A DNA stretch of 64,000 nt. It comes from Escherichia coli (GTDB lineage: Bacteria; Pseudomonadota; Gammaproteobacteria; Enterobacterales; Enterobacteriaceae). The translations under genes were made by a program, and so were the position numbers. Of the stretch, positions 30,942 through 36,042 are shown in pieces (position 1 is the stretch's first letter; the number at the start of each line of letters is the position of its first letter). The notes under the pieces were generated by a model. That model was not told the origin of the DNA, did no database searches, and saw only the letters and a program-made list of their open reading frames with translations. Location of the stretch: the NCBI RefSeq assembly GCF_003018235.1, contig NZ_CP027437.1. One strand, written 5' to 3'.

Positions 30942-31346
30942 ATGGATCAGGTTGTTGTTTTTCAAAAGATGTTTGAGCAAGTGAGAAAAGAGCAAAACTT
31001 CTCCTGGTTTTATTCAGAATTAAAACATCACCGTATTGCACATTACATTTATTATCTGGCTACGGATAACATCAGAATTATTACTCACGATGACACGGTT
31101 TTGTTATTAAGAGGAACCAGGAACCTGTTAAAAGTTAGTACGACCAAGAACCCTGCTAAAATAAAAGAGGCCGCATTGCTTCATATTTGCGGAAAATCAA
31201 CATTTCGGGAATACTGTTCAACACTGGCAGACGCGGGCGTTTTCCGGTGGGTTACTGATGTTAATCATAACAAACGCAGTTACTACGCCATTGATAATAC
31301 GCTTTTATATATTGAAGATGTAGAAAATAATAAACCATTAATCTAG
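30942..31346 (+). CDS. ycgX: Protein YcgX
   Basis: 134-aa ORF; synteny. Confidence 0.85.
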   Translation: MDQVVVFQKMFEQVRKEQNFSWFYSELKHHRIAHYIYYLATDNIRIITHDDTVLLLRGTRNLLKVSTTKNPAKIKEAALLHICGKSTFREYCSTLADAGVFRWVTDVNHNKRSYYAIDNTLLYIEDVENNKPLI

Positions 31347-31553
31347 CTAAAGTTGGATGCTTAAAAAATGCTTCATAATTCAGTAAGGCATTAGCATAAT
31401 GGAAATAAAAGTGCAGAGACTATTCATATGGATGAGTAATACTATCTTTTTATTGCCACCCATAAATAATCACCAGATCAATACTATCAACTTGATATTT
31501 GAAATGTGATCACTTGACTTTTGATACGTTATTTTATAGCGGTTAACATATTT

Positions 31554-31606
31554 ATAAAAAACAACGGGCGTGCCATACGCCCGTTTCAATACTTAACGCA
31601 CATGTG
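31554..31606. repeat. Orphan copy of the icd 3'-flanking terminator region
   Basis: About 90% identical over ~53 bp to 32414..32466; includes hairpin aacgggcg-tgccata-cgcccgtt. Confidence 0.7.
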
Positions 31607-32043
31607 TTTTGGTTTAGTCATCATCCGGTTATATGTATTTTAGCCAGGAATGGGTTAAACCATTCCTATATAACTAAAAAATTGAAACCTTATTCTCATG
31701 TCATGCTTATATTCGTCATTATCGTTATATAAAAAGGCCAACCATAATGTTTAGCAAATTGGCACAAAGTAGTATAAAGGCTATGTTTTAATTACAGGAT
31801 GTTCAGTCATTTGAATGTATAACATTTTAGCTAAACAAATCTAAAACGAAGTGAATAATTTATTGTTTTCACTAAATCTCATTTTGTTTAACATCCATTG
31901 AGATTCCTTGCTTTAAATTTTGTTTTATATAAGCAATCGTTTTAATTAATTTATTTTTTTGAAGGGTAATATACTCATATGCAATATAAAGAAATGAACA
32001 TCCAAATGAACTATATTAAATACCGTGGGATAAGACATAACAA

Positions 32044-32367
32044 ATGAAGTGGGTAGTAATTGACACGGTAATTCAACCTACATGCGGCATATCTTTTTCA
32101 GCCATATGGGGTGATATGAAAATGATCATCTGGTATCAATCTACTATATTTCTCCCTCCTGGAAGTATATTTACACCGGTTAAGCCTGGTATTATCCTTA
32201 AGGATAAAGAATACCCTATTACTATTTATAACATCACACCATTCAACAAGAATTTATGGAGTTTACTCAAAAGCAGTCAAGAGTGTCCTCCAGGAGAAAG
32301 CGAAATAACAAATAAATGTTTGCATAAGAGTTGTATTATAAAAATATGCCCATATGGGCTCAAATAA
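32044..32367 (+). CDS. iraM: Anti-adaptor protein IraM (stabilises RpoS)
   Basis: 107-aa [26 protein letters not shown]... matching recalled IraM; long AT-rich upstream region. Confidence 0.75.
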
Positions 32368-32469: not shown

Positions 32470-33720
32470 TTACATGTTCTTGATGATCGCATCACCAAAC
32501 TCGCTGCATTTCAGCAGTTTAGCGCCTTCCATCAGACGTTCGAAGTCATAGGTTACAGTCTTGGCGTTGATTGCGCCTTCCATACCTTTAACAATCAGGT
32601 CTGCGGCTTCAGTCCAGCCCATATGGCGCAGCATCATCTCAGCGGAGAGAATAATAGAGCCTGGGTTTACTTTGTCCTGACCGGCATATTTCGGCGCAGT
32701 ACCGTGGGTGGCTTCAAACAGGGCGCATTCGTCACCGATGTTTGCGCCTGGGGCGATACCGATACCGCCGACCTGTGCAGCCAGAGCGTCAGAAATGTAG
32801 TCACCGTTCAGGTTCATACAGGCGATAACATCATATTCAGCCGGACGCAGCAGGATCTGTTGCAGGAATGCATCAGCAATCACATCTTTAATGACGATCT
32901 CTTTGCCGGTATTCGGGTTTTTAACTTTCATCCACGGGCCGCCGTCGATCAGTTCACCGCCAAACTCTTCACGCGCCAGCTGGTAGCCCCAGTCTTTAAA
33001 CGCGCCTTCGGTGAACTTCATGATGTTGCCTTTGTGCACCAGGGTCACAGAGTCACGATCGTTAGCAATTGCGTATTCGATCGCTGCACGAACCAGACGT
33101 TTGGTGCCTTCTTCCGAACACGGCTTAATACCGATACCGCAATGTTCCGGGAAGCGAATTTTCTTCACGCCCATCTCTTCACGCAGGAATTTAATCACTT
33201 TCTCGGCGTCGGCAGAGTCAGCTTTCCATTCGATACCCGCATAAATGTCTTCCGAGTTTTCACGGAAGATAACCATATCGGTCAGTTCAGGGTGTTTAAC
33301 CGGGCTTGGAGTGCCCTGATAGTAACGTACCGGACGCAGGCAGATGTAGAGATCCAGTTCCTGACGCAGGGCAACGTTCAGAGAGCGAATACCGCCACCT
33401 ACTGGAGTGGTCAGCGGGCCTTTAATGGCAACGCGATATTCACGAATCAGATCAAGGGTTTCAGCAGGCAGCCAGACATCCTGACCATAAACCTGTGTGG
33501 ATTTTTCACCGGTGTAAATTTCCATCCAGGAGATTTTACGCTCGCCTTTATAGGCTTTCTCGACTGCAGCGTCGACCACTTTCAGCATGGCTGGGGTTAC
33601 ATCTACACCGATTCCATCACCTTCAATGTAAGGGATAATCGGATTTTCAGGAACGTTGAGTTTGCCGTTTTGCAGGGTGATCTTCTTGCCTTGTGCCGGA
33701 ACAACTACTTTACTTTCCAT
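32470..33720 (-). CDS. icd: NADP-dependent isocitrate dehydrogenase
   Basis: 416-aa [41 protein letters not shown]... matching recalled Icd; intact 3' end. Confidence 0.97.
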
Positions 33721-33891: not shown

Positions 33892-33942
33892 ATGCGGCAA
33901 TTCATAATCTCTGAAAATACCATGCAAAAAACTTCTTTTAGA
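33892..33942 (+). pseudogene. rluE: Displaced native 5' fragment of rluE (first 17 codons, MRQFIISENTMQKTSFR)
   Basis: Matches recalled RluE N-terminus, then diverges after the 11-bp repeat and stops at 34036..34038; TATAAT just upstream. Confidence 0.6.
33932..33942. repeat. Left copy of the 11-bp direct repeat CTTCTTTTAGA flanking the rluE insertion
   Basis: Identical 11-mer at 35429..35439, in the same reading frame (S-F-R) in both copies. Confidence 0.7.
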
Positions 33943-34180
33943 CCAAAGACAGTATTTTCCCGACATTCAAATAAAGTATTAAATATCAATTATTTACACC
34001 AGATTTTAAGCAATAAAAAAACCACCAGAGATAACTAACAGGGTGCTATTTGGTCAAAATTTGACATTACTCGATTCAGCGACTATCTCACTTTGAGCAC
34101 TATTGGGAAAATTATCAAAAGTCATGGTTGAAGCGACAAGCAACGAGTAAATTATGGCATCCCCCCTTTTTGAGGTTCAC

Positions 34181-34267
34181 ATGAAACGCTTTGCACTGAT
34201 AGCTGTGAAACTCGTTGCCTTTACTGGTTCTGCATCTGCTGCAACCGAAGAAATCAACTTCAAGTAA
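34181..34267 (+). CDS. 28-aa micro-ORF with signal-peptide-like sequence (MKRFALIAVKLVAFTGSASA/ATEEINFK)
   Basis: ATG preceded by gagg; hydrophobic core plus A-x-A cleavage motif; absent from the ORF track (below length cutoff). Confidence 0.35.
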   Translation: MKRFALIAVKLVAFTGSASAATEEINFK

Positions 34268-34300
34268 CAGAAACACTATATAACAATGGAGTGTTGACAA

Positions 34301-34588
34301 ATGGATACTACCGAAGAACGCAATGGAACATATTTCTACAGAGGACACCCGAACCTGTCCAAAATAGAACTACTCAACGTCATATTCCTTGAAGAATTCT
34401 GTAAGGAATTGGGGATTGATTCGGTATCAGGTGCAGCAATCTTATCTGGTCAACCGTGGCTGGGTACAAGAGCGAAGCCGCAAGGGGCAACCCTGGGAAC
34501 AAGTGTTGTCTCAAAGTATGCGCGTATACTGATGAGAGATGCACGCATGCCTTTTGGTATTTGTGGGTGTAAGGATGCAGAAATCTAA
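34301..34588 (+). CDS. Hypothetical protein (95 aa)
   Basis: ORF in the rluE-inserted cassette; no recognisable domain. Confidence 0.4.
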   Translation: MDTTEERNGTYFYRGHPNLSKIELLNVIFLEEFCKELGIDSVSGAAILSGQPWLGTRAKPQGATLGTSVVSKYARILMRDARMPFGICGCKDAEI

Positions 34589-34736
34589 TAAGCTTGCTGC
34601 AATTATCGCTCGTTGGGTCCCGTGGATTGGTTGGGCTTCACTGTCGATGAGTCTTTACAGGGTTTCGACTCGTACCCAGGAAAAATACAATCTGATTGCC
34701 AAACCTCAAGACCGTATTAAGTGGACTTCCTTCTAA
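34575..34736 (+). CDS. Small hydrophobic protein (53 aa, Trp-rich putative membrane segment)
   Basis: ATG at 34575 with aagga RBS; AAIIARWVPWIGWASLSMSL hydrophobic stretch; stop overlaps the start of the next ORF (TAATG). Confidence 0.4.
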   Translation: MQKSNKLAAIIARWVPWIGWASLSMSLYRVSTRTQEKYNLIAKPQDRIKWTSF

Positions 34737-35071
34737 TGGCGACAACAATCACAGACGAAGTTTTAGCACTGTTCCGTGATGAGATTCCAGGTTATCAGGA
34801 TGACCACGGGAAGGAAATTCCGTTAGAACTGGACTCTGATTTGTTCGACTATCCACGAGATGATTTAGAGGACGCTATACGGAAATACAAAGAGAGGTTT
34901 GGGATTAACCTGGATAATCTGGACTGGTCTTTGTACCTTCCATGGGAGTCTGCACCATTGCTTCAACGATGGTTCAAGCTCAAGCGGGAAGAGGTAGAAA
35001 CAACACGTTTACCGTTAACTGTACGGATGTTTGCAGAATCAGCAGAAGCGGGAAAATGGCTGTATCAGTAG
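34736..35071 (+). CDS. Hypothetical acidic cytoplasmic protein (111 aa)
   Basis: ORF 34721..35071 with ATG at 34736 translationally coupled to the upstream small ORF; resembles small enterobacterial proteins of unknown function (family not verified). Confidence 0.55.
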   Translation: MATTITDEVLALFRDEIPGYQDDHGKEIPLELDSDLFDYPRDDLEDAIRKYKERFGINLDNLDWSLYLPWESAPLLQRWFKLKREEVETTRLPLTVRMFAESAEAGKWLYQ

Positions 35072-35403
35072 AATAAAAAAGAAGGCTGCGATGCCCCTCT
35101 TATTACTGCTGATGATAGTAGTGGTAAAGCATCATCCTAAACTTGAACAGTGAAGTGCTGTCACCCATCAGTAATACAGAAACACTATTTTTCATACCAG
35201 TATTTATTCAATTCATCAATGTAAAATGTGTTCATTGGGCCATATTTATCACCATGCAGCCACACAACCGCTGCTCACTAACCCAGGTATTGATGAAACC
35301 GCGCTGAAGAGCCTGAACCCTGAACCTCTAACGAGTACCTTAAAAGTCCAATGCAATCCGACACTGTGCTACCCTCTGCGTATAGCTCTATTTGGAATTT
35401 ACC

Positions 35404-36042
35404 ATGAAATACTTTAGCGATTCTAAATCTTCTTTTAGAAAAAAACAGGTTAGTCGACTAAACTCGCAACACTCCACTAAGCGTAAACCTGAAAATCAGC
35501 CCACGCGCGTGATCCTGTTCAATAAACCCTACGATGTTCTTCCGCAGTTCACCGATGAAGCCGGACGCAAAACATTAAAAGAATTCATCCCGGTTCAGGG
35601 CGTTTATGCAGCAGGTCGTCTTGACCGCGATAGCGAAGGGTTACTGGTGCTGACCAATAACGGCGCGTTGCAGGCGCGTTTAACCCAGCCGGGTAAACGC
35701 ACCGGAAAAATCTATTATGTGCAGGTGGAAGGTATTCCCACACAAGACGCACTTGAAGCCTTGCGCAATGGCGTAACCTTAAATGATGGCCCTACCCTGC
35801 CCGCAGGCGTAGAGCTGGTTGACGAACCCGCGTGGTTATGGCCGCGGAATCCACCAATTCGTGAACGCAAAAGTATTCCCACCAGCTGGCTGAAGATCAC
35901 CTTATATGAAGGACGTAATCGCCAGGTGCGCCGCATGACCGCCCATGTTGGTTTCCCCACGCTGCGACTGATTCGCTATGCGATGGGTGATTACTCTTTG
36001 GATAATCTTGCCAACGGCGAATGGCGAGAAGCGACAGATTAA
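35404..36042 (+). CDS. rluE: 23S rRNA pseudouridine synthase RluE with cassette-supplied replacement N-terminus
   Basis: ORF 35392..36042; ATG at 35404 gives [49 protein letters not shown]...; the body matches recalled RluE. Confidence 0.88.
35429..35439. repeat. Right copy of the 11-bp direct repeat CTTCTTTTAGA
   Basis: Identical to 33932..33942. Confidence 0.7.

Follow-up and report, generated by a model that had tools for sequence, protein, structure and literature searches.

The 64,000-nt stretch of Escherichia coli DNA considered here (contig NZ_CP027437.1 of assembly GCF_003018235.1; hereafter, the window) carries between icd and rluE a 1497-bp cassette (positions 33943 to 35439) that is absent from K-12 and is inserted inside the 5′ end of rluE. 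A first-pass annotation made from the letters alone described in it a translationally coupled trio of small proteins of 95, 53, and 111 amino acids (aa), the second a Trp-rich hydrophobic membrane protein, and likened them to toxin/immunity, toxin-antitoxin (TA), or small anti-phage modules. The three open reading frames (ORFs) do lie on the plus strand at 34301-34588, 34575-34736, and 34736-35071, with a 14-nt overlap between the first two and a TAATG junction between the last two. The trio itself dissolves on closer inspection: what reads as a 95-aa and a 53-aa ORF is one frameshifted gene broken in two, a pseudogene of the STM2901 family (34301-34736, plus strand), and the third ORF is an intact gene of the DUF1493 family. 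We posit that the locus is probably a decayed, orphaned effector/immunity module of the polymorphic-toxin type, in which the pseudogene is the remnant of a predicted toxin gene and the DUF1493 gene encodes its predicted cognate immunity protein.

Over the 850 bases compared, the window differs from E. coli FDAARGOS_497 in a single respect, a 14-bp deletion (CTGTTCATACACCA) between positions 34562 and 34563, and the undeleted FDAARGOS_497 sequence translates into one protein of 149 aa (WP_000381622.1). The 95-aa ORF comprises residues 1 to 87 of this protein followed by eight out-of-frame residues (CGCKDAEI), and the 53-aa ORF, which begins MQKSNKLAAIIARWVPWIGWASLSMSL, comprises its residues 97 to 149, read from an internal Met. 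Both match NCBIfam model NF045926 (the STM2901 family; Pfam PF26636, DUF8209), the first with 92.4 bits over positions 1 to 80 and the second with 51.5 bits over positions 96 to 140; each alone falls short of the curated whole-protein cut-off of 110 bits, and the undamaged allele of E. coli reaches 156 bits. Both fragments also match the family profile. Since the two ORFs are separated by a deletion in an otherwise identical allele and match one family model, they represent one gene, and the 14-nt overlap between them is a by-product of the frameshift rather than a conserved coupling. The window copy thus departs from the family norm, a single uninterrupted ORF of 147 to 155 aa. Nor does a separate small membrane protein remain: the 53-aa ORF is the C-terminal part of the 149-aa protein and includes its conserved amphipathic GRxxPxxGW helix, and the hydrophobic helix is at the limit of what would pass as membrane-spanning (the highest Kyte-Doolittle mean over 19 residues is about 1.2 to 1.3; family median, 1.52). 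No microhomology was found by eye at the deletion junction. A match of the protein to a KELAA motif in a Pfam hmmscan was below threshold and was dismissed as noise; PF26636 was not returned by that copy of Pfam.

The deletion is one of several ways in which this gene has been lost. Of 5426 complete E. coli genomes searched by megablast with the intergenic region, 374 contain the cassette at full length; in all 374 the gene is intact and the pair is annotated as “STM2901 family protein” and “DUF1493 family protein,” and none of these RefSeq genomes has the 14-bp deletion. The exact 95-aa product is recorded on 26 contigs, and the deletion allele is therefore real and borne by a lineage, not private to the window. 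Counting this allele, the gene has been inactivated in E. coli by no fewer than six independent lesions. Public collections hold frameshifts at three other positions (P0058, P0051, and P0016), an in-frame loss of 11 residues from the conserved loop (P0005), and disruptions by insertion sequences (P0052, and IS1 and IS3 in matches H1 and H2). The DUF1493 gene is intact beside the lesion-bearing alleles in E. coli, a pattern that would be expected if an orphan toxin is dispensable or costly while immunity stays useful.

The intact partner (34736-35071, plus strand), whose start overlaps the stop of the pseudogene, encodes an acidic 111-aa protein that matches Pfam PF07377 with 103.6 bits (E = 1.1e-29; residues 4 to 110 on profile positions 3 to 107/108; gathering threshold, 21 bits) and occurs in exactly this form on at least 1000 contigs. 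Sequence prediction gives it neither a signal peptide nor a membrane span, and its predicted fold resembles the four-helix carrier-protein fold of acyl carrier protein (ACP); an hhalign comparison with E. coli AcpP returned a probability of 0.8%, which is not significant. The initial view that no function can be assigned to these proteins is thus right insofar as both families are uncharacterized, and has to be amended insofar as both genes belong to named families, NF045926/DUF8209 and PF07377/DUF1493.

The association of the two genes is strict. In 80 loci sampled across Enterobacterales by a pattern scan, with one genome per species, the STM2901-family gene is a single ORF throughout, and a DUF1493 gene lies immediately downstream in 79, the exception being a contig of 675 bp. 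The stop codon of the first gene overlaps the start codon of the second in 79 of 84 pairs, the junction being T[AG]ATG in 33 and ATGGTAG or ATGGTGA in 43, and conserved coupling is limited to this junction. Pairwise identities within the two families are correlated (mirror-tree r = 0.85; maximum after shuffling, 0.10), with DUF1493 diverging faster than its partner (mean identity, 0.37 versus 0.49), and the two proteins carry complementary charges, with median isoelectric points of 9.75 for the DUF8209 protein and 4.66 for DUF1493. In several genomes there is more than one paralogous pair, or pairs stand in tandem, or additional DUF1493 genes occur as orphans. Tandem pairs or orphan genes were seen at L032, L034, L058, L067, L079, L083, L085, and L088, and two DUF1493 genes follow one Rhs-type toxin; by analogy, such loci resemble the immunity-gene arrays of other polymorphic toxins. 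The stand-alone members of the STM2901 family, 147 to 155 aa long, share a conserved N terminus of their own, MDT[TV]EELNGTYFY.

The surroundings of the pair point to export. Hcp (PF05638; best E = 5.7e-35) accounts for 43 of 148 nearest-neighbor ORFs; in these 43 of 81 loci hcp lies on the same strand at a distance of 4 to 22 nt, upstream of the pair in 24 and downstream in 19, and at 11 further loci an hcp gene occurs at another place in the fetched sequence. The nearest relatives of the E. coli pair (64 to 88% identity) are mostly hcp-toxin-immunity operons. Farther out, the hcp loci are bordered by housekeeping genes, among them those for transporters and LysR regulators, and by no additional components of a type VI secretion system (T6SS); these loci are therefore small orphan hcp islets at varied sites. 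Strains of Enterobacter, Citrobacter, and Klebsiella michiganensis (loci L013, L022, and L021) provide examples of an hcp-toxin-immunity islet. Cargo of the Hcp lumen is limited to roughly 20 kDa or less, and the stand-alone proteins of 147 to 155 aa are small enough to fit.

A second delivery context emerged from a profile search of 1.84 billion representative proteins, which gave 675 matches, many of them with the domain at the extreme C terminus of proteins of 220 to 612 aa. In 19 of 43 long homologs the domain is preceded by an Rhs-associated core domain (TIGR03696), which ends in a DPxG motif, and some of these fusions also contain RHS/YD repeats. Contigs were fetched for six fusions, in which Pfam labels the domain DUF8209; four of the six are directly followed by DUF1493, in one case by two copies in tandem. 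The domain swaps between a stand-alone hcp-linked form and an Rhs-tip form while keeping the same small downstream partner, which is how a polymorphic toxin and its immunity protein behave. Other long homologs have unrelated Cys-rich or Gly-rich N-terminal regions. In P0207, P0212, P0226, and P0235, Cys-rich regions with no Pfam or NCBIfam match take the place of the Rhs core, and a gene neighboring the first of these (locus L091) encodes a protein with a sorting domain (Por_Secre_tail) of the type IX secretion system; the Cys-rich homologs may involve a different, undescribed delivery or pre-toxin module.

The pair also travels on replicons and in a virus. It is found on IncFII plasmids of Serratia and Pantoea and in the P2-like temperate Erwinia phage EtG (L003, 5001-5761), where it lies between the tail-fiber assembly and tail-sheath genes on the strand opposite to its neighbors, a position that we take to be the Z/fun cargo hotspot of P2-like phages. 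Either the pair is interbacterial toxin/immunity cargo of EtG, or it serves a second purpose, the exclusion of phages. In Salmonella, STM2901 (pigA), which gave the family its name, adjoins STM2902 (pigB) in a laterally acquired islet beside invH of the pathogenicity island SPI-1. Homologs thus occupy mobile islets, plasmids, and a phage and are not isolated housekeeping genes, the finding that the first-pass annotation had named as one that would count against its proposal.

The literature searched offers no function for the STM2901/DUF8209 or DUF1493 families: DUF8209 is not mentioned, DUF1493 appears only in passing, in three papers, and STM2901 only in the contexts of genome comparison and cloning. 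None of the identifiers searched for occurs in the supplements to a 2026 survey of Salmonella T6SS effectors, and the family is mentioned neither in papers on Pantoea and Erwinia hcp islands nor in a large effector-discovery preprint. PADLOC-DB v2 has no match to either protein at E ≤ 1, both proteins match only PHROGs families of unknown function, and in Pfam and NCBIfam only DUF1493 and the STM2901 family are returned, with no known TA family and no DNA-binding domain in the downstream protein.

An AlphaFold2 model of the DUF8209 protein, built from an 80-sequence alignment, has a predicted local distance difference test (pLDDT) score of 76, which is moderate confidence, and shows in order a β-hairpin, two helices, a loop, a short helix, a second hairpin, and a long helix. 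The loop, modeled with low confidence, is highly conserved (TRxKPxxAxxGTSxxSxxxR), and the long helix carries the invariant GRxxPxxGW; T67, S68, S71, R75, and R109 are among the invariant residues. Searched as single sequences and as profiles against all PDB chains, both proteins gave chance-level matches only; the predicted fold of the DUF8209 protein matched no solved protein and showed no structural match to TA toxins, and a Foldseek search of the PDB with a model of the fused pair returned nothing at E ≤ 0.001.

In the window, icd occupies 32470-33720 on the minus strand and rluE-nudJ-mnmA-hflD-purB run from 35392 onward on the plus strand; rluE and icd are 1671 bp apart, versus 171 bp in K-12. 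Both ends of the cassette carry a copy of a 20-nt imperfect direct repeat (family D2), AAAACTTCTTTTAGACCAAA at 33928-33947 on the left and its counterpart at 35425-35444 on the right (both on the plus strand; 85% identical; spacing, 1497 bp). The left copy lies within the K-12-type rluE start (MRQFIISENTMQKTSFR), which is orphaned at 33892-33942, and the right copy within the 5′ end of the functional rluE (35404-36042, plus strand), whose alternative N terminus is supplied by the cassette. Because the left flank is 100% identical to K-12 and the first 180 nt of the right flank only 94.4%, the data suggest that the rluE 5′ end was imported along with the cassette.

Within the cassette, DNA homology to other genera is limited to 34300-35078, and none was found there for the flanks outside the two genes. 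Exactly this two-gene core is flanked by a perfect 13-nt direct repeat (family D3), ACAGAAACACTAT at 34267-34279 and again at 35176-35188, both on the plus strand; by a rough estimate about 0.02 such repeats would be expected by chance per 1.8 kb, and the repeat may be a scar of the pair's entry into the cassette. An ORF of 37 aa at 34154-34267 has a signal-peptide-like core (MKRFALIAVKLVAFTGSASA followed by ATEEINFK); its exact sequence occurs on at least 1000 contigs, annotated only as hypothetical, with no Pfam match, and it may encode a small peptide for secretion or be what is left of an exported protein. On the other side of icd, the region 30942-32367 holds ycgX (DUF1398), ymgL, ymgK, and iraM, named after the FDAARGOS_497 annotation. 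Since these genes follow the icd 3′ end, the e14 prophage, which resides at that site in K-12, is absent.

Together, these observations can be assembled into a working model. The first gene (34301-34736) would once have encoded a basic 149-aa STM2901/DUF8209 toxin, and the second (34736-35071) would encode its acidic cytoplasmic DUF1493 immunity protein, with translational coupling ensuring that immunity is made whenever the toxin is made. In other Enterobacterales the pair and hcp form a self-contained three-gene islet, and this arrangement implies that the Hcp tube takes up the small toxin as cargo and that a T6SS fires it into neighboring bacteria; in other phyla the same domain would be delivered as the C-terminal tip of an Rhs protein. 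We regard T6SS cargo loaded into Hcp as the probable form of the effector in the relatives and an Rhs tip as its form elsewhere. Its toxicity, its neutralization by DUF1493, and its delivery by Hcp and the T6SS are predictions, as is its site of action, which we place in the cytoplasm or at the inner-membrane face because the putative immunity protein has neither a signal peptide nor a membrane span. In the window strain, the 14-bp deletion would have ended toxin production, and the retained immunity gene would protect its bearer from related strains that still wield the toxin.

What the toxin might attack is a matter for speculation. DUF8209 could be a toxin of new fold and new mode of action and the ACP-like immunity protein a decoy for its target, in which case the toxin would be directed, at the inner-membrane face, against ACP itself or against a step in making lipid or lipid A that depends on ACP; we regard this elaboration as unlikely. 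To our knowledge, a target class of the ACP type has not been described for T6SS or Rhs toxins.

Several observations weigh against an effector/immunity module. The evidence is computational throughout, and neighboring genes were called by a crude ORF finder. No hcp was present in the fetched sequence of 27 of the 81 loci, and a search of the cassette for hcp or an hcp remnant, and of the whole window for hcp or any other T6SS gene, found none. No direct fusion of the toxin domain to Hcp, VgrG, or PAAR was found among the 43 long homologs. Two Rhs-DUF8209 fusions are followed by small genes that have no DUF1493 match (L086, 3805-4332, 175 aa; L089, 3574-3969, 131 aa); these may be a different family of immunity genes serving this toxin domain. 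Neighboring genes at L089 match DUF2380 and Gmx_para_CXXCG. An AlphaFold model of the fused DUF8209-DUF1493 pair reached a predicted template modeling (pTM) score of 0.51 and gave no usable evidence of an interface. Finally, the function of pigA and pigB is listed as unknown, and the pig genes, several of which are regulated by HilC, make no apparent contribution to virulence.

Other explanations have to be measured against the same facts. In a TA, addiction, or abortive-infection module, the toxin would act in its producer with DUF1493 as a labile antitoxin, stabilizing plasmids and prophages or killing infected cells. The location of the pair near parA and integrase genes on IncFII plasmids and between the tail-fiber assembly and sheath genes of EtG would suit such a role, as would the PHROGs matches and a cytoplasmic, acidic partner protein, yet carriage by phages and plasmids fits polymorphic toxin pairs as well. 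PADLOC recognizes neither protein, and neither a DNA-binding domain nor a known antitoxin domain is present in the downstream one; moreover, the main associations are with intercellular export devices, namely hcp at 43 adjacent loci and Rhs C termini in 19 of 43 long homologs, and interbacterial toxins characteristically come with orphan immunity genes and tandem arrays. We therefore consider a module acting in its own host rather unlikely, and from the three possibilities raised at the outset we retain the toxin/immunity pair, whose stop/start coupling is real and conserved (79 of 84 pairs); the TA and anti-phage possibilities find little support. It is quite improbable, in turn, that DUF1493 works in the cytoplasm as a chaperone or adaptor, covering the hydrophobic helix of the toxin and passing the toxin to Hcp, with immunity, if any, encoded elsewhere. 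A soluble protein beside one with a hydrophobic helix, a small helical ACP-like fold that could serve as a binding scaffold, and a C-terminal motif (PLTVRMFAESAKAGKWLYD) conserved unusually well for an immunity protein would all be in keeping with this idea. However, DUF1493 follows the toxin domain also in the Rhs setting, where an Hcp adaptor is irrelevant; it exists as orphan and duplicated genes without toxin genes; it is kept in E. coli as the toxin decays; and it co-diversifies with the toxin while diverging faster.

A non-toxic role is less probable still. The two proteins could form an accessory or virulence-associated pair of the pigA/pigB kind, co-regulated with invasion genes or partnering Hcp, for example, as a structural or regulatory T6SS factor, and the Salmonella homologs do adjoin invH of SPI-1. 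The Rhs C terminus downstream of the core cleavage motif is, however, where toxins are known to reside, and this is the position that the domain occupies; strict pairing and co-diversification with a small downstream gene are likewise what a toxin/immunity pair would be expected to show, and we hold an accessory function to be very improbable. We give the least credence of all to a functional three-component module in which a membrane peptide of 53 aa joins a protein of 95 aa and an acidic one of 111 aa. Its ORFs and overlaps exist, the 95-aa product is on record, the 53-aa ORF has been annotated as a “putative membrane protein,” and the C-terminal fragment is translatable in principle from the internal ATG. 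Against this, the split is due to a deletion that is seen in 0 of 374 cassette-bearing complete genomes and that removes the nearly invariant Thr91, the gene is a single ORF in 80 loci of other taxa, and several unrelated lesions in the same gene in E. coli are a signature of decay, not of a new architecture.

The effector/immunity module that we favor belongs to a well-known kind of system, whereas its two families are named yet uncharacterized and the window copy is an ordinary pseudogene with an orphan immunity gene. The closest parallels are the small Hcp-dependent T6SS cargo pairs, such as Tse2/Tsi2 and Tse4/Tsi4 of Pseudomonas aeruginosa. In the relatives of the window copy, as in these pairs, a small putative effector (149 aa) is encoded beside hcp with a coupled downstream immunity gene; DUF1493 resembles the Tse2/Tsi2 immunity protein in being cytoplasmic and acidic, and DUF8209 resembles Tse4 in having a hydrophobic helix. 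Unlike them, the proteins have no sequence or fold similarity to a solved protein, and the window copy lacks hcp and is frameshifted. The RhsI type, in which a polymorphic toxin domain at the C terminus of an Rhs protein is followed by an immunity gene, is matched by DUF8209 directly after the Rhs core (19 of 43) and by DUF1493 as the next gene in most cases examined, whereas the proteins of E. coli and other Enterobacterales stand alone, with their own N terminus in place of an Rhs shell. Salmonella pigA/pigB share with the E. coli pair the STM2901 family (pigA), presumably DUF1493 (pigB), and the character of a laterally acquired islet, and differ in chromosomal site. The Pantoea PIX effectors Pse3 and Pse4 are likewise encoded in orphan bicistronic effector/immunity operons outside the main T6SS cluster, in the same bacterial order; identity with the PIX delivery domain was rejected, since PIX proteins are two-domain proteins of about 350 aa bound to a specialized VgrG, unlike the single-domain, hcp-linked 149-aa protein. 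Finally, DUF1493 is set apart from acyl carrier proteins by the absence of significant profile similarity to AcpP, by an extra conserved C-terminal helix motif, and by a genomic context that is toxin-linked rather than biosynthetic.

These findings correct the annotation of the window, which should show a pseudogene and an intact immunity gene instead of a three-gene module, and they give DUF8209/STM2901 and DUF1493, families with no function assigned until now, a concrete and testable role. Members of both are common throughout Enterobacterales, are also carried by plasmids and by one phage or more, and include Salmonella pigA and presumably pigB, for which the decoy of ACP, if real, would provide a first function. 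A toxin fold that has no match, paired with an ACP-like immunity protein, makes the system a reasonable candidate for a new toxic activity. For E. coli, the recurrent lesions would mean that lineages drop the weapon and keep the shield, a pattern that bears on predicting the outcome of competition between strains in the gut.

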